Positions 12,458-45,076 of a stretch of 64,000 bases of DNA are shown in pieces. The position numbers were made by a program, and so were the translations under genes. Under the pieces are notes generated by a model. That model made no database searches. It was not told the origin of the DNA and worked only from the letters and a program-made list of their open reading frames with translations. The DNA is from a virus. Positions within the stretch are counted from its first letter, which is position 1, and every line of letters begins with the position of its first letter. The stretch lies in the IMG/VR virus record IMGVR_UViG_3300037467_000627; one strand, given 5' to 3'.

Positions 12458-13294
12458 CTAAAACTCTACCGCCTTTCGCATGGCTTCCATAGAGGTCAAC
12501 GGATACGCCTGTGTGGTCGTGACAGACGCATGGCCGAGCAGTTCTTTCAGGACAAGGATGTCCTTGGTCTCCGACTGGATGATCGTCGCGTACGTCGCCC
12601 GCAAGTCGTGGCTTGAGATCTCGCGGGACAGCTTGGCAATCTTGCCGAGGCGCGTGACGAGGGCTCGAGCCACGCGATCCGAGAACGGACACAGCAGCGC
12701 GTCAGTCTCGACACACTCCACGAAGGCCGACATGATGGCCGACCAGCACCTTGTGGATACCGGTACGTAGCGAACCTTGTCACCTTTGCCGTGGACAGTC
12801 AGGATCATTGTCTGGAGGTTCAGGTGAGACGGACGCACCCTCCGCGCTTCGTGCACCCGAAGGCCTGCCATGCCACACAGACCGATGATCGCCTCTTCGT
12901 GACAGGTCCTAGAGACCTGGATCAGGAGGAGTAGGGACTGCAGGAGGCCTGGGATAGGATGGGGCTGGGGTGGTGGTGGTGGCGGGGACTTGTACCCCTC
13001 CAGCACTGCCGGGATCCTCGCCCAGGTTGCCAAACTCCGTAGACTCGTAATACGTCGCCTCGTCGTCCTCGGAGATGCCATCTTTCTCTGGATCCCAAGC
13101 CATTCCCGACTCTTCGAATCCAGTTCCTCCGCTGGGAGCATCACTGCCTCGAACGGGATCCTCTGCTGCTGAGCCACCCACTCCAGAAACATCCGGAGAT
13201 CCGTCTCGTACCCCTTCGCCGTGTTCTCCGACAGGCCTGCGTCTAACAATGAGCTGCGGTACTTGGCGATAATTTCTGGAGTCAATGTCGTCAC
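12458..13294 (-). CDS. tyrosine recombinase (XerC/D-like, no arm-binding domain)
   Basis: N-terminal SAM-like core-binding motif (LSENTAKGYETDLRMFLEWV), GLRVHEARR (Arg I), HDLRATYAT (H-x-x-R), LLGHASVTTTQAY (His/Tyr). Confidence 0.85.
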   Translation of the reverse strand: MTTLTPEIIAKYRSSLLDAGLSENTAKGYETDLRMFLEWVAQQQRIPFEAVMLPAEELDSKSREWLGIQRKMASPRTTRRRITSLRSLATWARIPAVLEGYKSPPPPPPQPHPIPGLLQSLLLLIQVSRTCHEEAIIGLCGMAGLRVHEARRVRPSHLNLQTMILTVHGKGDKVRYVPVSTRCWSAIMSAFVECVETDALLCPFSDRVARALVTRLGKIAKLSREISSHDLRATYATIIQSETKDILVLKELLGHASVTTTQAYPLTSMEAMRKAVEF

Positions 13295-29799: not shown

Positions 29800-30738
29800 T
29801 CAGGCCGCCTTGCGGGCGCCCTTCGGCTGGCCATCGGCGGCGTCCACTGGCTCGACGCCCTCGAGGGTGCACTTGCCGGACTTCGGGAACAGGCGCGCCG
29901 ACACAGCTCCCGGGCTCGGGTGCTCGTCGCCGTACTCGGCCGAGTTGTGCGAGACGATCTGCGCCACGGTCAGGAAGTCGCCGGGGTTCTTGTCCGCGAA
30001 CGCCTCGAGGATGTGCTTGCCGATGTCGCGCCGCGTACCGGTGAACGGCGTGCGAGTGCCGCCACTGGAGCCCTTGCTGACCTTGCCCTGCGCCAGCTTC
30101 AGCGCGCGCCGCGCCAGGGCCGACACCTGCGGCTCCTCGCCCTCGCCGGTGTACTGGGCGAGCTTCTGCACGTCCTGCATCGTCTCACCGGCGAGCTTCT
30201 GCGCCCGGTCGTTCCAGTCCTCGGCGACACCGTCCGGCACGTTCTGCGTGACGTGGCTGTACGCCAGCTGCAGCGCGACGACCTGCTCCACGAAGTTCGT
30301 GGTCGGGTCGGCCGGGGCCTTCGGCTCCTTGGAGCTGCTGCCCTTGGCCTTGGTGATCTCGCCACGGACCGCGTTCAGGGCACGCGCGAGCGGGACGTTC
30401 GGGGTGTCGCCCTCGAGCGCCTCCTTGACGCCGTTCTCGATCCAGGCACGGGCGGCCGCCTTCGGCTTCGCGCCGTCGAGCGACTGGTACGCGGCCAGCA
30501 CGTTGTGCATCTGCTCGGTCGAGAGCGTGCCCGTGGTCGGGTCCATCTCGGCGATGGCCTTCTGGATCGCCTCGTCGAACGCCTTGGTGTCGACGACCGC
30601 CTCGGTCGCCTCGGTGTTCTGCGCCGGGGCCGAAGTCGTCTCGGCTGGCGCGTCGGTCGCGGTGGCAGTCACCGTGTCCTCCTTGGGTTTCGCTGTGGCC
30701 TTCTTGGCCGCAGTCTTGGTAGCGGGCTGACGCGCCAT
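29800..30738 (-). CDS. hypothetical protein, putative winged-helix C-terminus (paralogue A of 36504..37295)
   Basis: Start moved to the ATG at 30738 (GGAGGT RBS). The C-terminus HILEAFADKNPGDFLTVAQIVSHNSAEYGDEHPSPGAVSARL aligns with the 263-aa protein at 36504..37295. Confidence 0.65.
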   Translation of the reverse strand: MARQPATKTAAKKATAKPKEDTVTATATDAPAETTSAPAQNTEATEAVVDTKAFDEAIQKAIAEMDPTTGTLSTEQMHNVLAAYQSLDGAKPKAAARAWIENGVKEALEGDTPNVPLARALNAVRGEITKAKGSSSKEPKAPADPTTNFVEQVVALQLAYSHVTQNVPDGVAEDWNDRAQKLAGETMQDVQKLAQYTGEGEEPQVSALARRALKLAQGKVSKGSSGGTRTPFTGTRRDIGKHILEAFADKNPGDFLTVAQIVSHNSAEYGDEHPSPGAVSARLFPKSGKCTLEGVEPVDAADGQPKGARKAA

Positions 30739-30876
30739 TGCGGATACCTCCTGCGATATCGGGCGTCGGGTGTTCGATCGTCGTTTGACCATCTGAGCTA
30801 TCAGCGAACCTAGCGCTGACACCGCACATGGTCAAGCCGGGGGTGCGTGCCTAGTGTACGAGCCTGCTATCGGAGA

Positions 30877-35375: not shown

Positions 35376-35519
35376 CCCAACCCCTCCGTATCTCGTTATC
35401 GGCGGCCAGGTCATACGTCTGGCCCACATGCCCATTCTACGCCGCACTGGGTGGGGAGAACTAGCAATTGATAGCACACACTTCACTGTCGGTAATCAGC
35501 CGAACAAAGGTATATGGTC

Positions 35520-35556
35520 GTTGCCCTCGGCAACAATACTGGTTGCCCTAGGCAAC
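35520..35556. promoter_or_regulatory. two copies of the 15-bp palindrome GTTGCC-N3-GGCAAC, putative operators
   Basis: GTTGCCCTCGGCAAC (35520-35534) and GTTGCCCTAGGCAAC (35542-35556), 22 bp apart, in the divergent gap between 35022..35375(-) and 35681..36010(+). Confidence 0.55.
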
Positions 35557-35680: not shown

Positions 35681-36010
35681 ATGACTAAACGAGGTGGACT
35701 AGCGTCCGGACTATGGATTCACCCTGATGACCCCTGGGGAAAGGTGCATCACCTATCTGGGTATGCCTACGTGCCTATGCGACTGAATGACGACGAGCTC
35801 GGTTGGGGATTCCAATCGACACCTATCCGCACACCTCGCCGATGCGAACACGGGTACACCTGTTGTATCGAGTGCGTTGATTCGTGGGCGCTGGACTATG
35901 AGGTCAATTGGGGCGCGACGGCTGGCGGTAGAAGGTTGCGCCAGGCAATCATCGATCGATACGCCACGGACCCCAACGCGCCCGATGTGCGAGGCGTGCC
36001 TAGGCCGTGA
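35681..36010 (+). CDS. hypothetical protein (only plus-strand gene in the early arm)
   Basis: 109 aa. ATG with GGAAGG upstream. CEHGYTCCIEC cysteine cluster. Followed by its own hairpin terminator. Confidence 0.55.
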   Translation: MTKRGGLASGLWIHPDDPWGKVHHLSGYAYVPMRLNDDELGWGFQSTPIRTPRRCEHGYTCCIECVDSWALDYEVNWGATAGGRRLRQAIIDRYATDPNAPDVRGVPRP

Positions 36011-36040
36011 CGGCACGCGCTAGCTAGCACAAGGCATGAT

Positions 36041-36072
36041 GCGCCCGGACCCCGGTAGGTGGGTCCGGGCGC
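36041..36072 (+). terminator. stem-loop terminator after 35681..36010
   Basis: 12-bp perfect stem GCGCCCGGACCC / GGGTCCGGGCGC with an 8-nt loop, 30 nt past the stop. Confidence 0.6.
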
Positions 36073-36452
36073 ATTGTCGTAGGTGGGCCTGACTGGGCCG
36101 TAATGGGGCCTAGAACGCGCGTTCAGGCGGTCCGGGTAGGTGGGTGTGGGTGCGGGGGTTCAGGCCGTCAGAACGGCACACACGGCGTGTGGCGCGCGGG
36201 CCGTGGTCGGCGCGGGCCGGTAGCGGGCTAGGACTCGCTACGCGCGGGCCGTAGACGGGCCGTAGGCGGGCGCTGGGCGCGTGATGCGGTGTCGGGTGTA
36301 GGTGGCATCTAGCGGGCCGTTAGAACGGCACACACGGACGCGCCACGAGGTATGTAACACAGGCGGTGTCACATGGCGTGTCGGCACGGGATTGTCGACT
36401 GTATACAGCTGATCGTCGGCGGCATGCCGGATACTGTATACAGCAGGTAGCA

Positions 36453-36494
36453 AAACAAACCACCGACCAGGTTGCCCTGATCGGTGGTTTGTTT
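36453..36494 (-). terminator. intrinsic terminator after 36504..37295
   Basis: 14-bp perfect inverted repeat AAACAAACCACCGA / TCGGTGGTTTGTTT with a 14-nt loop. On the minus strand the stem is followed by TTTTG. Confidence 0.75.
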
Positions 36495-36503
36495 CCTACG
36501 GGG

Positions 36504-37295
36504 TCACGCGGCCAGGCGGAACCCCTTGACCTTGCTGGCGTTCTCGGTCGACTCGATGCCGTCCATCTCGCGACCGTGCGCCGCGCCGATGGCACCGACC
36601 GAGGGGGCCTCGTCCGGGCCGTACGCGTCCGACCGGTGGTTGTGGATCTGCGCGCAGGTCAGGATGGTGCCCTCGGGTGCGGCCTCCAACGCGGAACGGA
36701 TGTGCGCCTCGACGGACCGCTGCGGGCCGGTACGCCGGTTGCCGGACTTGACCGTGGCCAGCTTCGTGGCCAGCGCGTCACGGGCCTCCGTCTCCTGGTC
36801 ATCCAGGCCACCGTTGACCCGTTCCACGAGTGCGGCGTACGCGTCGGCACCGTGCGCCTCCTTGAACGCGTTCAGGGCGATCTCGCGCGCCGACTCCAAC
36901 GCGGCCAGGTGGATGACGTACGCGTCGGCGGGGTCAACCTCGACCGTGGGCCGTGACGTGACCAGCACCGCGTTGACGTCACGAACCAGGGCCAGCTTGC
37001 CCATGTCCAGGTCGTTCAACGCGTCGGACTGGAACTTGGCCCAGGCGGCCCGCATGGCGGCCTTGGTACCCTTGTCCGCGTTGCGGTACGCCGCGCCGAC
37101 CGACTCGACGTAGGCGGCCTGGTCCGTGTCGGCCGACCAGTCCGGGATGACGTACGCGGGGGCCTGGGTGGTCGGCGCGGCCTTGTCGGTGCCCGTGTTG
37201 GTGTCCGTGGCCTGGACGGGCGCGGGGGTCGGCGCGGGCGCGTCGGCGGTCTGGGCGGTCTTGCGGGTGCGGCGGGTGTTGGTGTTCGTGGTCAT
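36504..37295 (-). CDS. hypothetical protein, putative winged-helix C-terminus (paralogue B of 29800..30738)
   Basis: 263 aa, AGGAGG RBS. The C-terminus HIRSALEAAPEGTILTCAQIHNHRSDAYGPDEAPSVGAIGAAH...KGFRLAA aligns with 29800..30738. Confidence 0.65.
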   Translation of the reverse strand: MTTNTNTRRTRKTAQTADAPAPTPAPVQATDTNTGTDKAAPTTQAPAYVIPDWSADTDQAAYVESVGAAYRNADKGTKAAMRAAWAKFQSDALNDLDMGKLALVRDVNAVLVTSRPTVEVDPADAYVIHLAALESAREIALNAFKEAHGADAYAALVERVNGGLDDQETEARDALATKLATVKSGNRRTGPQRSVEAHIRSALEAAPEGTILTCAQIHNHRSDAYGPDEAPSVGAIGAAHGREMDGIESTENASKVKGFRLAA

Positions 37296-37387
37296 GATTC
37301 TCGGCCTCCTAGCCGGGTAGTGCGGCGGGCACGGTGCCCGCCTAGATCCAGAATGGGTGATGGGTAGGTGCGTGTCAATAGGTGGGC

Positions 37388-37422
37388 GGGTAACGATCTC
37401 GGCGAGTCCGGGATCGTTACCC
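37388..37422 (-). terminator. stem-loop after 37435..37830
   Basis: 11-bp inverted repeat GGGTAACGATC / GATCGTTACCC with a 13-nt loop, 12 nt past the stop. Confidence 0.5.
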
Positions 37423-37434
37423 GACTATGGGTGA

Positions 37435-37830
37435 CTACGGGGTCACTCGGTGCCAGTCGTAGGTGCGCCCGTTCCACACGGGTAGGCACGAGTCCTCGGT
37501 GGGGCACTCGGCGGAACGGACGTAGGCGGGGGTCGGCGGGGTGTCGAGGCGGTCCGTGAGGCGTGTAGCCGTGTAGGCCGACGCCATGACCGATACGACG
37601 ATCACGCTGGCCACCAAGGCGGCCCATGCGGACGCGCGGCCCATGATGCGGAAGGCGGCCCGAAGGTGTGTGCGCCGTACGTGGCGACGGTACGCGCGGG
37701 CCGAACGCGCCTCGGCCTCGGCGGTACGCGGGTAGGTGGGCCGGATACGGGTGATACCTGACTGGTCCGTGATGCATACGCGTCCGTTGCGTGTGACGGT
37801 GCGTACGTTCGTGTAGGTGGGTGTGCGCAT
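37435..37830 (-). CDS. hypothetical single-pass membrane protein
   Basis: The track ORF 37435..38097 was trimmed to the ATG at 37830 (GGGAGG RBS). ASAWAALVASVIVVSVMASAY is hydrophobic. Contains PTY/RTY motifs. Confidence 0.55.
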   Translation of the reverse strand: MRTPTYTNVRTVTRNGRVCITDQSGITRIRPTYPRTAEAEARSARAYRRHVRRTHLRAAFRIMGRASAWAALVASVIVVSVMASAYTATRLTDRLDTPPTPAYVRSAECPTEDSCLPVWNGRTYDWHRVTP

Positions 37831-37963
37831 GGTGTCTAGCCTCCCAGGCCGTGTGTAGCGGTGTGTGTGCCCGTGTGCGGGCCGTTCAGGTGTGTGTAGG
37901 TAGGTGGGTGTGGGTGGGCACCTACGAGGCGTGTAGGCGGCATAGGTGCCCGTGTAGCGCGTG

Positions 37964-39586
37964 CTAGCGGATGGCGTAGTGCGCGTCGAGTGTGTCGGCC
38001 CATGCGGTGTAGTGCGCGCGGGACGGTTCGTAGGTGCCGAGCTCCATCTCGCGCACCAACGATGCGTACGCCGCGCCGACCGTGGGGAACGCGACACCCA
38101 CCCACATGGCCCATGTGCGGCGGAACTCGTCCACCATGGCCGCTACGTCGTCGCGTAGCACGGTGCGGTAGGTGTCCCGCTCGAACGGCACGCGCGTGAC
38201 TACGCGGGTGTAGGTGTCGGGCGCTACGGGGCCGTAGGTGCCCGCGTAGCGTGCGTTGGCGCTACCGGTGAACGTGTGCCCGTTGGCGTCACGGTGCGCG
38301 CCCGCGTGACCGATAGGTGCGATGCATGCGCCGTACGCGCCGTGATCGTGTAGGCACGTGGCGACCATGGGCCACGATGCCGACGACACGCGGTCATAGG
38401 TGCCCTCGGCAACTTCCTGCCAATAGGTGCCCTCGGCAACTACGTAGGTGGTGGTGCGACCGGACTCGTCGGTGTACCACATGTGGTTGACGTCCGCGCG
38501 GGTGACCGTGCCATCCGCGTAGGTGCGCGTGGTGACCGTGCCATCGGTGGTAACGGTGTAGTCGGTGCCGTGTCGGGATGTGCCCGTGTAGGTGCGACCG
38601 GGGATCATGCCGACCCACGGCGCGGGGTCTACTACGCCCATGGCGCGCGCTACGTGGGCGCGTACGGGCCGACCGAACACGGACACGTAGGTGTCGGTGT
38701 CGGCGGGGTCCGTGGCGTCTACGGGCGCGCTAGGTGTCGCTACGAACGGCACACCGAACGCGGATACGGCGTCGGTGTCATCGGCGGTAGGTGCGTCGTT
38801 GGTGTCGGTGGCAACGTGCACGATGTAGTCACTACGCGGTGTGGTCCATGACCCGTTGTCCGTGATGATGCGAACAATGGTCCAACCGTCATCGTCGGTG
38901 TCGGCATCGATGGTGTCGTGTTCCACGGTGCCCGCGATGGTGCGGGTGATCGTGCGCCCGGTGCCGTCACCCGTGTGCATGTGCAACGTGACGTAGGTGC
39001 CGGGCGCAACGGTGTCTAGCAACACGCCGTGTTCCCCGCACGCGATGCACACGGGTGCGTCGGTGCCGGTAGGTGCGTAGGTGTCGGTGTCGGCACCGTG
39101 TACGTCTAGGTAGGACATGCCCGTTTCGGGGTCGGTGTCCGCGTCGGTGGTGTCACGGTCGAACCACGGCGTAGCGTCGGTTGCCGGAACCGTAGGTGCG
39201 CCGTAGGTGTTCGTGCCGGTAGACGCGTAGCCCATGCCATCGGCGGTACCCACGTAGCTACGCGCGGGGTCAACGGTGGTGATGGGCACGCCGTAGCGGG
39301 TAGCTAGCACGGTGGGTTCGTCGGTGTAGGTGTGGTCGGTGTGCGGGGGGGTGGGCATGTAGGTGCCGAACACATCCGCACCGGACGACAACGGTGCACA
39401 CCACACGGCGTAGCCATCGGTGTAGGTGTCGGACCCCACGTAGTAGCCCCATCCCGTAGGTGCGGTGTCGCGGTGCGCGTCGAACCACCGGGTAGCGCCC
39501 GCATGGGTGCGGTAGCCACTACGGATGATGTGTGCGGTCATGTCGGTGTGGTCGGTGTGTGCGTGGGTGCGGATGGTGTTCGTCAT
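37964..39586 (-). CDS. orphan 540-aa Thr/Tyr/Asp/His/Gly-rich protein
   Basis: ATG at 39586 with AGGGG upstream. At least 15 (G/D/P)-T-Y tripeptides, encoded by the recurrent CACCTAC heptamer. No domain recognised. Confidence 0.6.
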   Translation of the reverse strand: MTNTIRTHAHTDHTDMTAHIIRSGYRTHAGATRWFDAHRDTAPTGWGYYVGSDTYTDGYAVWCAPLSSGADVFGTYMPTPPHTDHTYTDEPTVLATRYGVPITTVDPARSYVGTADGMGYASTGTNTYGAPTVPATDATPWFDRDTTDADTDPETGMSYLDVHGADTDTYAPTGTDAPVCIACGEHGVLLDTVAPGTYVTLHMHTGDGTGRTITRTIAGTVEHDTIDADTDDDGWTIVRIITDNGSWTTPRSDYIVHVATDTNDAPTADDTDAVSAFGVPFVATPSAPVDATDPADTDTYVSVFGRPVRAHVARAMGVVDPAPWVGMIPGRTYTGTSRHGTDYTVTTDGTVTTRTYADGTVTRADVNHMWYTDESGRTTTYVVAEGTYWQEVAEGTYDRVSSASWPMVATCLHDHGAYGACIAPIGHAGAHRDANGHTFTGSANARYAGTYGPVAPDTYTRVVTRVPFERDTYRTVLRDDVAAMVDEFRRTWAMWVGVAFPTVGAAYASLVREMELGTYEPSRAHYTAWADTLDAHYAIR

Positions 39587-39774
39587 GGTGTGCCCCTAGG
39601 TGTGATCGGTGGGTGGTAGGTGGTGCATGAACAACGTACGTGTAGGCGCATCGTAGGTGTAGGGGTAGGTGTGGGTTTCGGGATCTTGTTACCATACTGC
39701 AATGTACGCACCGTGATAAGGCGTCACAAGGTGTAGTCGTGTGATGTGTGCGTGTAGGTGTGGCATGAGTGGTG

Positions 39775-40046
39775 GTTGCTAAGGGCAACAAAGCGCCGAA
39801 CGAGTGCATGACTTCGTTGCCAAAGGCCCCTATTGAGTCATCGTTGCCTCGTGCAACCTTTGCCATGGGCAACAATACACCTTTGTTGACCTCGGCAACG
39901 ATTACGTTGCCATCGGCAACTGATGCCAAAGGCAACCGATAACGTACATTATCGGTCGGCATATCGATGCCTGACGCAACGAGTTTTGTTGCCAACGGCA
40001 AACACCTTTGATGCCCTCGGCAACTAAACCGATTGCCCTTGGCAAC
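39775..40046. repeat. phased array of 11 copies of the 15-bp palindrome GTTGCC-N3-GGCAAC
   Basis: Sites start at 39775, 39816, 39843, 39859, 39885, 39906 (perfect), 39922, 39966, 39988, 40010 and 40032. The last four are exactly 22 bp apart. No convincing ORF. Confidence 0.85.
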
Positions 40047-40124
40047 AAAGAAAATTCCGACCCCCCCTCGCGTGGCGCGCCTCTGAGCGCTTTTCGTACC
40101 TGACAAATTTTTTGGGTACCTAAG

Positions 40125-40142
40125 GATGATAGTACTATCATT
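40125..40142. promoter_or_regulatory. palindrome GATGATAGTACTATCATT (perfect core TGATAGTACTATCA)
   Basis: Same core as the 15941 operator-like palindrome. Confidence 0.5.
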
Positions 40143-40199
40143 AAGAGCCCTACAAGCTACGCCCTCTGCACCCATGAAGCCGACCATGGACAAGACGAG

Positions 40200-40795
40200 G
40201 ACACCTGACACCCTACAGAGTATATATACTATATATATACTTTAATTACTGTATAATATACACGAGCTATTCACGGGCGGTCCACCTGTAGCGTTTGCCC
40301 ACGTCACGGGCCATCTTTGGGGTTTGTGCGGGTTTCCTGACCCCCATTCCGTCCCCCTCTGTGCGGCATGCCTCACTGACACCGACCGTTTTGTACCATG
40401 TCTCCCCTTGTAGCGTTGTACCATCAGTCTCCCCTTCTCCTCCCTTTTGGGCCTATATAAGGACCCCGTATTAATTAATTCCCCGACGATCGCCAAAGAT
40501 GCCCCGTGACGTGGGAAAACACACCAGGGGATTAGTTTTTCGGCCGCTGGCGTTTATCCCATGGACGGAATTAATCCGAGTGACCTGCCTGGTGATAGTG
40601 CTATCCATTGTCAGACCCTACTCCACAAGTTTTGTACCAAGTCTAGCCTATTCTAGACCGTTTTGAATAAACACGAGCGGTATACTCACCAAAATTATCA
40701 GAAATCCGGATTAATTGCCCTGATATGACAAGTCTAACGCGAAACCGTCCACTTCGGCCACGTTCTGGCGCCTTTTTAGACTGAAAGTAGACACG
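40200..40795. other. AT-rich, ORF-free, repeat-dense segment (candidate origin / regulatory hub / ncRNA locus)
   Basis: TATATATAC x2 (40221-40240). Three copies of TTGTACCAnnGTCT (40388, 40413, 40629). 13-bp long-range inverted repeat CCCACGTCACGGG (40298) / CCCGTGACGTGGG (40503). TGATAGTGCTATC at 40593. ATTAAT-containing motifs. Confidence 0.6.
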
Positions 40796-40839
40796 AAAAA
40801 GCGCCCACTCAGCGCCTGTTTTGCAGGTCTGAGGGGCGC
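40796..40839 (-). terminator. intrinsic terminator ending the replication-gene transcript
   Basis: On the minus strand: GCGCCCCTCAG...CTGAGTGGGCGC stem (one bulge) followed by TTTTTCG, 15 nt past the stop at 40854. Confidence 0.75.
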
Positions 40840-40853
40840 GATTTCGACGCTAG

Positions 40854-41102
40854 TTAGACGACTTTGATCTCGTGGCGTAGGTGTCCGCGCCCGTCGATGA
40901 CCGACTTGTGGCCGATGCAGAGCACGCGATGGAACGAAGCAGCGGACTGAATGAGCCAGATGAAGTCGATTTCCTCTTGAACTCCTAGGCCAGATTCGCC
41001 CAACTTGCGCTCTTTCCCCTCCTCGCGCAGAAATGCGTTGAGTTTGCCATCGATGCGCTCGATGACGATTCTTGCGTCCTCACTTAGCGGTGTAGCAGTC
41101 AT
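40854..41102 (-). CDS. hypothetical protein
   Basis: The track ORF was trimmed to the ATG at 41102 (MTATPLSEDARIVIERIDGKLNAFL...). Confidence 0.55.
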   Translation of the reverse strand: MTATPLSEDARIVIERIDGKLNAFLREEGKERKLGESGLGVQEEIDFIWLIQSAASFHRVLCIGHKSVIDGRGHLRHEIKVV

Positions 41103-41109
41103 CAGCTTG

Positions 41110-41430
41110 TCACTTCCTGGTCCAGTACCCACACTGGCCGGTCGACGAGAACGTCTGGTTTTTGGACCCCGTGCCGAGGATGATCGACGGAGTTTGGTTC
41201 TTTCTGGAGTACTTTTGGCGCCAGATCAGGGTGCCGTTGATGTTCTTCATCGAGTACGTGCAGCCCGGTGAGGCGCTCTTTGCGTACCAGATTCCGTAGT
41301 ACGCGGGGGTGACTTTGCGATTACCTGAGCCCATGGACTCGGCCGACCCGACATCGTCGGGACAGCCAGTCAGGGCCACAGTTGAGGCGGCGACAGCGAG
41401 TACAGCTAGTACTTTTCGTGCAGAATTCAC
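41110..41430 (-). CDS. putative lipoprotein
   Basis: MNSARKVLAVLAVAASTVALTGC: signal peptide ending in the lipobox L-T-G-C. Confidence 0.7.
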   Translation of the reverse strand: MNSARKVLAVLAVAASTVALTGCPDDVGSAESMGSGNRKVTPAYYGIWYAKSASPGCTYSMKNINGTLIWRQKYSRKNQTPSIILGTGSKNQTFSSTGQCGYWTRK

Positions 41431-41876
41431 AGTGATGCAACCTTGTCAGCGAAGTGGACATGACCGATGATCTCGTTGGGAAGAATGCGGGACTCGGCTT
41501 CGGTGATGAGCTCGTCTAGAACCTCGTATCGTGCGTTGGCGGACTTGGCTTGCTGGCTGCGGACGGCCAGCCGATGGGCGCGGCGGCACAGCAGGCCACG
41601 ACAGCCTTGCATGTACCCTGCGCGCCTACCGTGCTGGCCGGAGAACTGAGGCTGGGCTACCTCGGCCATGAAGTGAGCGATGAGCTTGGTGATCAGCTCG
41701 GTCCGCGTGCCGTCTAGCACCGCGCCGAGGTCGCGCACTGGGCAGGGAGTGCCCGCGACGTCGGCAACGTGCATCTTCAGCTGGGCGTCCCAGTAGACCG
41801 GGCCGTGCTCCATGTACTCCAGGCACTGCTTCGTGAGATTGGTCGCTTCTTCGCCGACCGGGTAGGGGTTAACCAT
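41427..41876 (-). CDS. hypothetical protein
   Basis: The track ORF was trimmed to the ATG at 41876, which overlaps the primase-helicase stop by 8 nt. Confidence 0.6.
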   Translation of the reverse strand: MVNPYPVGEEATNLTKQCLEYMEHGPVYWDAQLKMHVADVAGTPCPVRDLGAVLDGTRTELITKLIAHFMAEVAQPQFSGQHGRRAGYMQGCRGLLCRRAHRLAVRSQQAKSANARYEVLDELITEAESRILPNEIIGHVHFADKVASL

Positions 41877-43974
41877 GCTGGACACTCCTGAGACGGACGG
41901 GGGGACGACCAGCCTTACCGGTCTGAACCTTGACTTCCTCGATGAATCCAGCCTTGATGAGCTCATTGATGGCCTCGTTGACCTGCTTGGTTCCGATGTT
42001 CTTGGTCTTCATCGCGTCATACAGCATCGAGCGGTTCGGGCCGAGTCCGTTGCCGAATTCAGCCTCCTTGCGCTTGATGTAGTTCAGCACACGATCGATG
42101 AACTCCTGCTGCTGCGACTTGCCGATCTGAGCGCCGACGAGCCTGAGATTCGCGAGGATGTAGGGGTGGAGCTTCTCGATGAACGCTACGTCGAGCTCGC
42201 TGACTTCGGTCGCGCGGCGGTTGATTGCGTGACACAGCATGAGCTTCTTGTAGTGGATCTCGAGGCGGGCGATCATGTCATCGTCGGACCGCTTGATCAT
42301 CAGATCGACCGGAGCGAAGAACTCCTTGAACGCCTGGCGACCCTCGGGGGTTACCTCGAGGATGACCGGGGCGTCTGTGGGGTTCTTCCTCTGCGAGGCA
42401 ATCGCGATCCCGCTGAGCGTATTGAGTGCCTGCTGCAGATTGATCGCCACTCCACCGAAGTAGTCGTCGCGCTGCTTGGTCGGCCCGGATACATACAGCC
42501 AGCGGTTGAGGTAGCCCGACGCCTGATCCTGGCTGTCGAGGAGCTTGCGGAGCGCCCTCGGCTGGCTGGAAGTGCTGAACGTGGCGAACGCATCGCGGGC
42601 AGCCTTGCGTCCGTGCGTCTGAGAGGAGTTGGTGATGATGTGACGCCCGTCGATGAAGTCCATGATCTTGGTCTTCAGCGTAGACCCTTGGATGGATGAC
42701 TTCGCCAGGATGGTCGACAGCTCCGAGAACTCGACGTAACCCTTGATTGGCCTGGGTGCGGCTACACCCTTGAGGGTTCCCTCGAACTCTCCGATCAGCG
42801 CTTCGCCGGACGCTACCTCGCCGACGTAGCGAGCTCCCTCAACCATCACGCCGATGTCATTCTCAGGCATCGCGTAGCCGATGGCCTTTGCGATGTAGTT
42901 CTGTGCGGTCGACTTACCCGAGCCCGTCTTGCCGAGGTAGCAGATCGGCAAGTTCGCCATGACCGGTCGGTCGCCACCCATCAACACATCCCTGCCCGCC
43001 GCCAGGCCAAGCAGGAGAAGCCCGCTAAACAGGTGATACTCCTCCGGACTGTAGTCGTGGCTCGTTGCGTCGCACCACTGATACAGGAAGGTGTCCTGGT
43101 AGTCCTTCAGAGCTTCCCGCCACGGAAAACTTGGAATGTTTGCGTCTGAGTCAAGTTCCGGGTCGTAGGCGTCGACTTCCGGATCGATGGAGATAACCTC
43201 CGCGAGAGGCTCATCAGGCTCCGGAGGTATGCCCGTTGCAAGCGGAACAAAGCCGAGCTGTGTGGGCGGCGGCACAAGATGCAGTGCTGGGGGTGTGGCC
43301 CCATCCTCCACCGGCTGCACGCCTGGAGAATCAGGCGCAACTGGCTGTACCGCACTGGGTCGCGGCGCGGGTTGCAAAACCGGAGGGGGTGGAACAGGTG
43401 TAGATACAACGACCGGCGGTACGAGGTCATACCCGCCTCCTACTTTCTCGTTGAACGAATAGCCCAGATCTTCGCCCATGGCGCGCCTGAGCTTGTGGAA
43501 CATGGCACCCTCTTTATATCCGGGCACCGGGAATCCGTGGTGGTATGCAGCGATGTCGTAACCATCGCCGCCCTCCTGGCAGCCTCCGCAGAACCAAGTA
43601 TTCTTCTCGGTATTCAGCCAGGCGGAAGGGTTAGCGTCCTTATGACTGGGCTTCGGACAGGACACCATGATCGACTCGGTGCGGCCGGACGAAACCTTTG
43701 GCTTCATCTTTCCGCACCACTTCGCGTACGCCTCGAGGATGCCGATTCCGTCGAGGATCCTGTCCAGCTCGATGTCCTCGTCTGTACGCGTGTGAGACGA
43801 GTCTGAGTCAGTGTCCGGAATGAGTGCAGGGTCAAACTGAGGTGTAGGCGGCGACGCCGGAGCTACAGCTTCTTGTTCAGCTGCGCGCTTGGCGTTCGCC
43901 GCCGCCTGAAGCTGACGAGCCCTCTCCAGAAGCGAGAGAGGCTGGTCAGTCACGGAATGGGTCTCCCATCTCAA
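41869..43974 (-). CDS. DNA primase zinc-finger / P-loop helicase fusion protein
   Basis: CPKPSHKDANPSAWL...WFCGGCQEGGD (CHC2-type zinc finger of DnaG-like primases). Walker A LGKTGSGKST about 330 aa downstream. 701 aa. Confidence 0.7.
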   Translation of the reverse strand: MRWETHSVTDQPLSLLERARQLQAAANAKRAAEQEAVAPASPPTPQFDPALIPDTDSDSSHTRTDEDIELDRILDGIGILEAYAKWCGKMKPKVSSGRTESIMVSCPKPSHKDANPSAWLNTEKNTWFCGGCQEGGDGYDIAAYHHGFPVPGYKEGAMFHKLRRAMGEDLGYSFNEKVGGGYDLVPPVVVSTPVPPPPVLQPAPRPSAVQPVAPDSPGVQPVEDGATPPALHLVPPPTQLGFVPLATGIPPEPDEPLAEVISIDPEVDAYDPELDSDANIPSFPWREALKDYQDTFLYQWCDATSHDYSPEEYHLFSGLLLLGLAAGRDVLMGGDRPVMANLPICYLGKTGSGKSTAQNYIAKAIGYAMPENDIGVMVEGARYVGEVASGEALIGEFEGTLKGVAAPRPIKGYVEFSELSTILAKSSIQGSTLKTKIMDFIDGRHIITNSSQTHGRKAARDAFATFSTSSQPRALRKLLDSQDQASGYLNRWLYVSGPTKQRDDYFGGVAINLQQALNTLSGIAIASQRKNPTDAPVILEVTPEGRQAFKEFFAPVDLMIKRSDDDMIARLEIHYKKLMLCHAINRRATEVSELDVAFIEKLHPYILANLRLVGAQIGKSQQQEFIDRVLNYIKRKEAEFGNGLGPNRSMLYDAMKTKNIGTKQVNEAINELIKAGFIEEVKVQTGKAGRPPVRLRSVQHG

Positions 43975-44773
43975 GAACCCGAGCCTGGTCGGCGTGAGGC
44001 CGAAGGTCGACAGGACGTCCCCCCATGTCGAGGAAGAAGGTCGGGTCTGTGGTCTTACGATTGCGGCCTAGCGGTAGACGCATGAGATTCCCCAGATCTT
44101 TCCCGTCGAGCGTGTCCTGCTTAGGGAACACCTCGATCTGGAAGTTCTTGTAGCCTGTAGTTGGCTCTTCGCTGACGTGCCTGTAGAAGTTGTCTCCGCG
44201 ACTCGGCGTGAATTCCCCGGTCGCCTGTAGTGCGATCTTTGCTACCTCTCTGACCTCGGCGGCGGGCATCTCGCCAGTGAAGCCGTAGACATGGATGCCC
44301 TTGCCGCCGGTGTAAGCCACGGCGCAGGGCAGCTGAAGGTCTCGCGTGATGACCTTGGCAAGCTTCGAGCCAAGCATCTTCATCTGGTACTTATACCAAT
44401 CCCGCGACGGATGACGCCGATCGCGCCACTCCTCGCGGGGATTACCCTTGTAGATCTGGAAGTTCTCGCCATGCTGGAACGAGATCCAGGTGCCTTCCTT
44501 CTCGAGATCGATATCGAAGGCGAACAACTTGCAAGTGCCCTCAGGGCTCAGCATGTAGTGGCCATAGGTCTTGTCTCCGGACAGGTGATCACGGAGGTGG
44601 GTCATCTTGAAACCCACTGGACCGTAGGGGGCGAGGCGATTCGTGCCTTTTTCTGCATCGATCTCTGCAAGGCGAGTGTCTGGGCAGTAGCTGCCGTCGT
44701 CGAACTGGATCGCCTTGACATCTCGCCGAACGATGAATTTCTTGGCGAGCTGAACAGCGAGATCTTCTGCCAT
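43946..44773 (-). CDS. archaeo-eukaryotic-type primase-polymerase (AEP / prim-pol)
   Basis: Start at the ATG at 44773 (AGGAG RBS). FAFDIDLE (DxD), YTGGKGIHVYGF (GxGxH), later MRLPLGRN, all typical of AEP catalytic motifs. Confidence 0.7.
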   Translation of the reverse strand: MAEDLAVQLAKKFIVRRDVKAIQFDDGSYCPDTRLAEIDAEKGTNRLAPYGPVGFKMTHLRDHLSGDKTYGHYMLSPEGTCKLFAFDIDLEKEGTWISFQHGENFQIYKGNPREEWRDRRHPSRDWYKYQMKMLGSKLAKVITRDLQLPCAVAYTGGKGIHVYGFTGEMPAAEVREVAKIALQATGEFTPSRGDNFYRHVSEEPTTGYKNFQIEVFPKQDTLDGKDLGNLMRLPLGRNRKTTDPTFFLDMGGRPVDLRPHADQARVLEMGDPFRD

Positions 44774-45076
44774 CTGTACTCCTGGGAAGAGGCGACCGAT
44801 ATTACATACAGCTGTTACAGTGGAAACATTAGCCGCACGGGCGTCTACGGTCAATCATAGGTGTTATCCTATGCTTGACTATCGGCGAGCTGGCTCGCTA
44901 CTCTGTGTGCACCTCCTTGTATCTGCGATCGGGCGACGGCAGATGAGGGCAGTAGGCGACGACCTGGCACCTGGTCTGGGAAGAACCGGTGTCGGGTCGT
45001 CGCTGCTTCTCCACGCGCGCCCGCGTCGTGTACCGTAGCTGCACGCCCGTAGCTACGAGAGATATCGGATACTTTC

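Follow-up and report, generated by a model that had tools for sequence, protein, structure and literature searches.

In the cer site of ColE1 and the psi site of pSC101, a dif-like core is accompanied by about 180 bp of accessory sequence bound by ArgR and PepA or by ArcA and PepA, and the accessory protein imposes intramolecular resolution. In bacteriophage P1, the lox site in the terminal redundancy serves to cyclise the injected DNA and to resolve dimers. In the lambda attP intasome and in the res sites of Tn3 and gamma-delta, a crossover core lies within about 250 bp of phased accessory sites that form a wrapped complex. The locus presented here occupies positions 39775-40046 of a 64,000-nucleotide stretch of viral DNA (IMG/VR record IMGVR_UViG_3300037467_000627), referred to below as the window. 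It consists of eleven dyads of the form GTTGCC-N3-GGCAAC arranged around a short palindromic core and, judged from its sequence, has the anatomy of an accessory-sequence recombination site, with the dyads as presumed protein-binding sites. We propose tentatively, stopping a little short of calling it probable, that the dyads are accessory sites around the core of a tyrosine recombinase and that they also lie in the leader of an operon encoding their probable binder, a winged-helix protein of 263 residues.

The locus resembles cer and psi in the presence of an Xer-family recombinase, in the inverted arms ending in ATAA and TTAT around a centre of 6-8 bp, and in the adjacent accessory sites of a regulator type. 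It differs from them in that a single dyad motif, densely repeated on either flank of the core, makes up the accessory sites, and in that the accessory protein family is uncharacterised. A single phage-encoded enzyme and symmetric arms, known here from sequence, also set it apart from cer and psi and bring it closer to XerA, XerH or Cre. With P1 it shares a simple tyrosine recombinase and a symmetric-arm site that may lie at or in the terminal redundancy, as it does in the related phage Trogglehumper, where the core lies within a 330-bp repeat. However, loxP needs no accessory sites, and P1 is temperate and circularly permuted, whereas the phages considered here are lytic and have exact terminal repeats. 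The arm sites of lambda are bound by the N-terminal domain of the integrase together with IHF, Xis and Fis, while the recombinase of the window has only a SAM-like domain at its N-terminus, and res employs a serine recombinase.

Other multi-site systems were also compared. Multi-copy 17-bp palindromes occur in Cluster O actinobacteriophages. The stoperators of Clusters A and CA, with a length of 13-14 bp, are likewise short sites present in many copies, to which a DNA-binding protein of the actinophage itself attaches. They are asymmetric, dispersed over the whole genome and orientation-dependent, and are bound by the immunity repressor of temperate phages (PMC13313380). The present sites, in contrast, are dyads confined to 34.6-40.05 kb, clustered in one array and carried by a lytic phage. 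The locus lacks the defining features of stoperators and of partition centromeres, and has those of an iteron origin in part only. The p6 protein of phi29 binds periodically (24 bp) over a few hundred bp beside the termini and couples repression of an early promoter to a DNA transaction. It recognises bendability and not a motif, and phi29 has terminal proteins and no recombinase; the p6 nucleoprotein complex is cited as an analogy only. The eukaryotic RFX X-box, GTTGCC-N(0-3)-GGCAAC, has the same half-sites in the same arrangement and, as proposed for the dyads, a winged-helix reader. No RFX-domain match in sequence or fold was obtained from the PDB profile and fold searches, and this likeness is treated as a coincidence.

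The eleven dyads extend over 272 bp. Seven of them, starting at 39775, 39816, 39843, 39859, 39885, 39906 and 39922, form the gene-proximal half of the array (39775-39936), and the last of these overlaps an arm of the core by 2 bp. The remaining four, starting at 39966, 39988, 40010 and 40032, lie exactly 22 bp apart and form the half proximal to the predicted promoter (39966-40046). The start-to-start spacings along the whole array are 41, 27, 16, 26, 21, 16, 44, 22, 22 and 22 bp. These coordinates, sequences and spacings, given in the preliminary description of the window, were all reproduced by reading 39400-40400 and by a mismatch scan.

When the window was scanned with up to two mismatches, 25 dyad matches were found, against 2.58 +/- 1.6 expected from 100 dinucleotide-preserving shuffles (largest value 8). 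Twenty of the 25 fall in the section 34.6-40.05 kb; the two-mismatch matches outside it (2793, 7233, 22632, 22751 and 24152) are at about the chance level. Within this section, besides the array, two perfect dyads 22 bp apart were confirmed at 35520 and 35542 (35520-35556), in the divergent region between an inverted gene of 109 residues and the next leftward operon. Two further copies at 38399 and 38426 (38399-38440), with one mismatch each, were also confirmed; they lie inside a gene of 540 residues, where they encode a repeated VAEGT peptide. Their sequence is found in the related phages L017 and L018 as well, and coding constraint could explain why it was kept. Five weak matches within 34.6-39.0 kb complete the set.

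The array had been described as free of open reading frames (ORFs). A minus-strand ORF of 230 residues (39519-40211) does run across it, but this frame is not conserved: a stop-free frame spanning the array is present in just three of seven related phages, and gene callers leave it uncalled in the relatives. Neither a comparable density of the motif throughout the genome nor a conserved overlapping ORF, the two findings named at the outset as evidence against a binding array, was thus observed.

A search with the 263-residue protein returned 19 relatives of 51-100% identity, whose contigs were examined. The comparison is based on seven distinct phages, the window and L013-L018, with 263-type proteins that are 57-80% identical. 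In each of the seven, 9-11 dyads occupy the same gap, ahead of a gene whose product ranges from 264 to 696 residues. The common layout is a 22-22-22-44-16-21 spacing, the last step being 21-22 bp, followed by about 27 bp. The 22-22-22 block is found in six of the seven (L015 has three of the four sites, 22-22), and the 16, 21 and 26-27 bp spacings of the gene-proximal half reappear in relatives. A more distant member of this supergroup, L146 (helicase 28% identical, GC content 64%), has the same motif and layout, with 10 sites upstream and 6 downstream of its pair of genes for 156 and 272 residues. The pair near 35520 is also kept in L012, L013, L017, L018 and L149. This conserved motif and lattice of spacings, in the seven phages and L146, supports the earlier suggestion that the array serves the cooperative binding of a dimeric protein to DNA.

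In the alignment of the seven gaps, the identity to the window is 0.71 for the half-sites, 0.44 for the N3 spacers and 0.57 for the linkers. A matrix built from 69 sites reads y-n-GTTGCC-nnn-GGCAAC-n-A, in which TTGC and GCA are almost invariant and TTGC/GCAA forms the centre of the recognition sequence. The half-sites, and not the N3 spacers or the linkers, are under selection. Among 107 deviating stem positions, none was compensatory, 16 gave G-U pairs and 91 were broken. Since the deviations break base pairing and the half-sites are selected, the sites are best seen as dyads for protein binding in DNA and not as hairpins of RNA or DNA. No match to Rfam or to tRNA-type features was found in 35-42 kb.

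The core, ACCGATAA-TGTACG-TTATCGGT (39935-39956, minus strand), occupies the 44-bp gap of the array. It has perfect inverted arms of 8 bp and an asymmetric centre of 6 bp, and it occurs once only in the window. The inner ATAA and TTAT are the same as the inner arm bases of dif. With 99% identity across the seven phages, the core is the most conserved part of the region, and the arrangement of four dyads on one side of it and seven on the other is kept in these phages and in L146. The preliminary description had noticed the palindrome CCGATAA-N6-TTATCGG, which is confirmed at 39936-39955 as a single occurrence in the window, but had missed its leading conservation, its dif/lox-like architecture and its co-occurrence with an Xer-like recombinase.

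This recombinase, a protein of 278 residues encoded on the minus strand at 12458-13294, lies 27 kb from the array. It matches PF00589 (1.2e-18) and the Xer-type SAM-like N-domain PF02899. Among PDB entries, XerA and XerD match it best, with alignment of the catalytic motifs Arg, His-x-x-Arg and Tyr. Orthologues were found in Perlina, ReqiDocB7, GMA3, GordTnk2 and Trogglehumper. It is present in the window even though this phage shows no sign of lysogeny.

The arms of the core recur in relatives around other central hexamers. In the window family of seven phages, the core is CCGATAA-TGTACG-TTATCGG, with the centre TGTGCG in L014. In ReqiDocB7 (L001 12028-12055) it is ACCGATAA-TCGCGG-TTATCGG, and in Perlina (L152 6958-6985) ACCGATAA-TCATTG-TTATCGGT; the recombinases of these phages are 33% and 36.7% identical to that of the window, respectively. 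GordTnk2 (L156 15514-15543; recombinase 31.8% identical) has GCCGATAA-CAGACG-TTATCGGC, with additional half-sites about 25 bp off on either side. In the partial contigs L146 and L151 the cores are CCGATAG-TGCACA-CTATCGG, with arms altered symmetrically, and CCGATAG-GGTGCA-TTATCGG. The analogous core of Trogglehumper (L153 253-274, L154 5016-5037; recombinase 30.7% identical) is TCGCATAA-CGATGG-TTATGCGT, with variant arms CGCATAA. There is one core per locus, in the syntenic gap, and seven different central hexamers occur among the lineages. For comparison, a relaxed core pattern occurs twice in 892 kb of unrelated bacterial DNA.

Recombinase and core are found together in the window, ReqiDocB7, Perlina, GordTnk2 and Trogglehumper, a small sample. 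In the sequence of Monty outside 8-44 kb, no recombinase was detected, and its syntenic gap is without a canonical core. Conserved arms, lineage-specific centres and the co-occurrence with the enzyme form the pattern expected of a recombinase target. In its arm and centre geometry, its putative cognate enzyme and this co-occurrence, the core therefore looks, at the level of sequence, like a site of the Xer/Cre type. The flanks of the core vary by lineage: GTTGCC dyads are present in the window family, while TTTCGATTAGAAA palindromes and AATG-N8-CATT repeats flank the core in ReqiDocB7 and Perlina. A conserved inverted repeat CCGATAG-N11-CTATCG with a TAAAGT -10-like element was also observed at 35460-35500 (minus strand), downstream of the dyad pair, and in relatives. 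It has half-sites in common with the core, but its spacer is too long for a recombinase core.

The position of the locus relative to the genome ends was considered through the relatives. The window DNA has no megablast match among 50,697 phage records, and relatives are reachable at the protein level only. Its proteins are 25-44% identical to those of Rhodococcus ReqiDocB7 and Perlina, Gordonia cluster CS (Monty) and Tsukamurella TIN2-4, and the window comes from a lytic actinophage distantly related to ReqiDocB7 and Gordonia cluster CS. The array is part of about 1.3-1.5 kb of non-coding DNA, a gap that separates two small genes from the gene for 540 residues. The physical ends of Monty lie within the syntenic gap. 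Direct terminal repeats of 184-1182 bp are found in cluster CS phages (PMC5559632), and of a few hundred bp in Reynauld and Trogglehumper (PMC13313380). The ends of Trogglehumper have been mapped, and its core occupies positions 253-274 within a direct terminal repeat of 330 bp, so that both genome ends carry the core in direct orientation. In this repeat, four GCCCTCGATC repeats and a TGACCTGCG element precede the core.

In ReqiDocB7 the syntenic gap is 2.5 kb of repeat-rich non-coding DNA. It contains arrays of the heptamer CCTAAAT at L001 12430-12790 (about 70430-70790 of ReqiDocB7), which resemble the short repeat arrays on the flanks of the T7 terminal repeat. This likeness suggests that the ReqiDocB7 genome really ends within the gap, and not where the record as deposited begins and stops. 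Throughout the supergroup, the terminal or non-coding gap contains an element (CCC)TGACCTGCG. In the window it is found as CCCGTGACGTGGG in a 48-nt inverted repeat (40285-40332 and 40481-40528), and elsewhere at L002 398 and 593, L001 11660 and 11833, L146 6052 and L153 about 235.

The likely reader of the dyads was sought among the proteins of the window. The best candidate, by presence and absence in the sequences compared, is the 263-residue protein (36504-37295, minus strand), the product of the third gene of the operon downstream of the array. Its N-terminus is disordered and is followed by a helical domain and, at the C-terminus, by a winged helix; in the AlphaFold2 model (predicted local distance difference test 77.6) the helical domain spans residues 59-179 and the winged helix residues 195-261. 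Foldseek gave weak winged-helix matches to this model (forkhead, Fur and LOTUS; E 0.2-1), and no family assignment beyond a generic winged helix was obtained from Pfam, the PDB sequence profile, BFVD or the PDB fold search. Its C-terminal 75 or so residues match the PHROGs family phrog_6708, of unassigned function, which a longer paralogue matches along its length. The motif accompanies the 263-type paralogue in the window family and in L146, and was not found in Monty, ReqiDocB7 and Demosthenes, which have only the longer, 340-type paralogue. A metagenome scan for further 263-type genes added two loci, and a profile search for distant ones added P0020 and P0021.

The preliminary description had named three candidate binders, and for two of them the comparison is unfavourable. 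The longer paralogue, an ORF of 340 residues called as 312 (29800-30822, minus strand), is orthologous to Monty gp99 and ReqiDocB7 gp081. It is an unlikely reader, because the segment PSxGA[VI]SARLFP, with which it would putatively recognise DNA, does not vary, whether or not a phage has the motif. The 109-residue protein (35681-36010, plus strand) is rich in Cys, with a C..H...C..C pattern that possibly binds zinc, and its gene is inverted with respect to all its neighbours, as it is in L013, L017 and L018. Gordonia CS phages have homologues; in Sombrero, Demosthenes and ASerpRocky, all phages of Gordonia, these lie on the common strand, and two copies are present in L146. The 109-residue protein is an unlikely reader, since Demosthenes has a homologue and no motif in the 8-kb right end examined. 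The C-terminal winged helix-turn-helix of the helicase, also considered, was rejected, as it differs between the window family and L146 despite their common motif. The third, the 263-residue protein, thus stands as a candidate that is not proven, with a counter-example in L151 discussed below.

The arrangement allows us to propose how the locus might work. Dimers of a sequence-specific protein, probably the 263-residue winged-helix protein, would fill the four phased sites on one flank of the core and the seven on the other, where the dyads are spaced mainly by 22 bp (two helical turns) or by about 16 and 27 bp. The core would be the target of the Xer-family tyrosine recombinase of the phage. 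The array would then serve as a scaffold of accessory sites, with the bound dimers wrapping or bridging the flanks and so setting the timing and topology of the recombinase. Because the locus lies in the gap that holds the termini of relatives with direct terminal repeats, the reaction is likely to be intramolecular, between direct repeats, and could cyclise the infecting DNA or resolve the multimers formed in replication. The scaffold also lies between an AT-rich promoter-like element and the operon of the presumed binder, which makes feedback on transcription likely, and the same complex would probably limit transcription of the operon. The smaller clusters, namely the pair at 35520/35542 and the second arrays of relatives, would act elsewhere and without a core.

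Several observations weigh against this proposal. L151 has a 263-type homologue (30% identity, nearest that of L146) and a core, yet no GTTGCC site in its 10-kb contig, implying either a diverged specificity or another binder. The motif occurs in unrelated contigs described below (L005/L007/L010, L008, L006 and L004), in the available parts of which no 263-type protein, no core and no common protein was detected, which suggests that the binder is a host factor or is itself mobile. Because no core accompanies the secondary clusters, the protein binding the dyads must do something besides recombination as well. The terminal repeat of Reynauld shows no clean core. The correlation between recombinase and core extends over six lineages, with the recombinase gene unchecked in the partial contigs. 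Trogglehumper alone has a known placement of the core with respect to the terminal repeat, and the contig ends at 40326 and 41322, taken as a proxy for the physical ends of the window phage, disagree. Finally, while the sites, their conservation and spacing, the core and its co-occurrence with the recombinase gene are shown, binding, recombination and regulation are inferred from the anatomy of the sequence.

A broader form of the proposal is doubtful, if possible. In this form the lytic actinophages of the ReqiDocB7, Perlina, GordTnk2 and Trogglehumper group, the window family among them, would carry a previously unrecognised system like Cre/lox or Xer/dif at their termini, in which an Xer-type recombinase of the phage, acting on a core within or beside the direct terminal repeat, cyclises or resolves the genome. 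A lineage-specific accessory array, here GTTGCC-N3-GGCAAC with a protein from a new winged-helix family related to phrog_6708, would gate the reaction and couple it to early transcription. A 2026 survey lists ReqiDocB7, Mbo2, Reynauld, Trogglehumper and related Gordonia clusters as lytic, all with a tyrosine recombinase of unknown role (PMC13313380). For such lytic Gordonia, Rhodococcus and Tsukamurella phages, whose recombinase has no lysogeny to serve, the locus offers a specific candidate target and a candidate accessory system, so that an open question becomes directly testable. If the proposal is true, it shows by what means genomes with exact terminal repeats are circularised or resolved in phages, gives a function to an uncharacterised winged-helix family (the phrog_6708 relatives), and could provide new orthogonal pairs of recombinase and site, with natural variation of the centre, for use in Actinobacteria. 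In the literature searched, the array, the core and the 263-residue family are undescribed, and the search for the motif returned primer noise only.

The alternatives turn largely on the surroundings of the array. Upstream of it, an AT-rich element (40214-40260, minus strand) ends in a conserved TATATAC(T)..AGT motif that is -10-like and reads toward the array. Its TATATATAC occurs nowhere else in the window, and the length of (TA)n varies in relatives, while the TATATAC(T)..AGT motif is kept in relatives and L146 and has a similar form in Perlina, GordTnk2 and Trogglehumper. The element is a candidate promoter of the operon or else a candidate unwinding element. A hairpin telomere at this position was rejected, as the palindrome is imperfect and of variable length in relatives and no protelomerase was found among the ORFs scanned, which were not all ORFs. 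A perfect 16-bp palindrome ATGATAGTACTATCAT at 40126-40141 is kept in most relatives. The conserved junction GGGGGGGTCGGAATTTTCTTTG (40046-40067, minus strand) comes directly before the first dyad; here GGTCGGAATTTTCTTTG is nearly invariant in the gap alignment, with one A/G position, and related forms are found in L146 and L151. Between the array and the gene for 540 residues, a conserved GTATGGTAAC (39688-39697, minus strand) contains TATGGT, which is -10-like by consensus resemblance only.

The operon itself starts 190 bp downstream of the array and has three genes on the minus strand. The first (37964-39586) encodes the protein of 540 residues, which is rich in Thr, Asp, Gly and Tyr, of low complexity and without a family match; the length of its counterparts varies from 264 to 696 residues. 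The second (37435-37830) encodes a membrane protein of 131 residues with a C-terminal CPTEDSC...W.G..YDW.PV.P motif, and the third the 263-residue protein. A strong intrinsic terminator with a U-run (36450-36497, minus strand; -38.8 kcal/mol, z = -9.8) ends the operon. The terminator-like site at 40799-40817 has a weak fold (z = -0.8). The order is thus terminator-like site, AT-rich element, array, three genes and strong terminator.

This anatomy fits an autoregulated operator, and it is possible, though on the doubtful side, that the array is nothing more. The binder would then coat the leader and, acting as a roadblock or silencer, repress the 540/131/263 operon in a negative feedback. The divergent promoters of the 109-residue gene and of the next operon would be controlled from the pair at 35520/35542, and the CCGATAA palindrome, unrelated to the recombinase, would serve as operator for another regulator or as a promoter element. 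Such an explanation agrees with the place of the array between the conserved -10-like element and the first gene, with the presumed binder being encoded in the same terminator-bounded operon, with the conserved pair in a divergent intergenic region, and with the perfect site just upstream of the 263-type gene in some relatives (L015 9868, L016 9870 and L149 2153). The core also holds TAATGT and TAACGT, which fit the actinobacterial -10 consensus TANNNT. However, eleven sites in 270 bp far exceed what repression needs, and the secondary arrays of L146 (8690-8962) and L013 (10946-10985) sit between convergent gene ends, where no promoter is expected. A core that keeps its arms and changes its centre, and that tracks the recombinase gene, would be left without explanation. 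The earlier suggestion of a multi-operator for the promoter of this island agrees with the anatomy, while the promoters are consensus matches only and the binder is a presumed one. If this explanation holds, the locus is a clean and deeply conserved case of phased cooperative binding, of ordinary interest.

A replication origin, with the dyads as iteron-like sites, the AT-rich element as the unwinding region and the small clusters acting like P1 incA in handcuffing, is unlikely, although several features recall one. As in the lambda ori with its O-some, P1 oriR/incA, R6K and RK2, there is a phasing of about 22 bp, an AT-rich tract nearby (unique, 170 bp off) and, in some relatives, a second cluster past the gene of the binder. 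The lambda ori sites are dyad-symmetric, as are those of the array, and plasmid iterons are not. The site lies directly downstream of the primase/helicase module, and the arrays flank the gene of the candidate binder in L146 and L013; in P1, the oriR and incA iterons flank repA. Unlike iteron origins, however, the gap has no DnaA boxes, with matches across the window at the chance level, and the AT-rich tract does not adjoin the dyads. No similarity to Rep or other initiators was found for the 263-type protein, which is missing from relatives with the same replication module, and the helicase C-terminal domain, as noted, differs between lineages with the same motif. There is no origin signal in the GC skew at the array. 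Origin iterons, among the functions first suggested, thus keep some plausibility without DnaA boxes, a recognised initiator or an adjacent unwinding element.

It was also considered that the dyads form a platform for a host DNA-binding protein. Several phages that infect one host group and are not related to each other would have arrived at the same site by convergence, perhaps so as to recruit a host factor or to titrate it. A scan of IMG/VR for two adjacent sites found unrelated high-GC contigs, L005/L007/L010 (L148), L008, L006 and L004, in which an extended T-[CG]-GTTGCC-NNN-GGCAAC occurs at the same 16, 21 and 22 bp spacings. These are at least four lineages with no common phage protein detected, against a chance expectation of about one match or fewer, roughly estimated from the specificity of the pattern and the size of the collection. 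The presence of a 263-type protein in L151 without the motif points the same way. On the other side, the motif is absent from the relatives infecting Gordonia and Rhodococcus that lack a 263-type gene. A scan of 185,579 bacterial genomes gave, among the matches listed, only coding tandem repeats (periods 27-39) and unrelated loci, with neither relatives nor a host regulon, a weak test as the host is not identified. A host platform is accordingly given a low probability. As a separate observation, transmembrane proteins with CP(x)EDSC, resembling the 131-residue protein, adjoin the motif clusters in L008 (13322-13633) and L006 (2266-2910).

A packaging signal is very improbable. The dyads would be sites for the small terminase subunit beside the terminal repeat, like the cosB R sites that flank a bend site; the gap does hold the termini in relatives, and the clusters of L008 and L010 are just upstream of terminase genes. 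The terminases of the lineages carrying the motif are, however, mutually unrelated, the TerS-like gene of the window is 5 kb distant, and conserved clusters 4 kb off and around the 263-type gene would not be expected of a pac site. A partition centromere (proposed earlier, and resembled by the parC-parMR-like layout of an array ahead of an operon ending in the putative binder gene), RNA hairpins (a 6-bp hairpin being possible at each site) and a protein-coding repeat (an ORF spanning the array) are together largely excluded, since the phage group is lytic with direct terminal repeats, a scan of the larger ORFs and of those near the array against Pfam and PHROGs revealed no ParA/ParM-type nucleoside triphosphatase, the 540-residue protein is of low complexity and variable length, the stems have no compensatory changes and the ORF is not conserved.

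On the leftward arm, an AEP primase (43946-44854, minus strand) and a DUF3987-type primase/helicase (41869-43974, minus strand) are followed by two small genes and then the gap, while the plus strand carries the TerS-like and large terminase genes from 45077 onwards. The leftward arm otherwise has genes for a sliding clamp, an SNF2-type helicase, CobT/CobS-like proteins and a methylase, a content that fits a lytic phage; no repressor or lysogeny module was found. There is no tandem duplication in the gap, and what look like repeats of 240 bp are weak. Some 230 bp (40874-41102), within which lies most of an ORF of 92 residues (40854-41132, minus strand), are present in the window and in L020 and missing from the otherwise 98-99% identical L011, L019, L021 and L023. 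The section 36000-39600, covering the genes for 540, 131 and 263 residues, is an island of high GC content (0.67-0.69, compared with about 0.59 elsewhere) with strong positive GC skew. Just past the operon terminator, in the convergent region facing the 109-residue gene, the palindrome CTGTATACAG occurs twice about 40 bp apart (36400-36445, minus strand).

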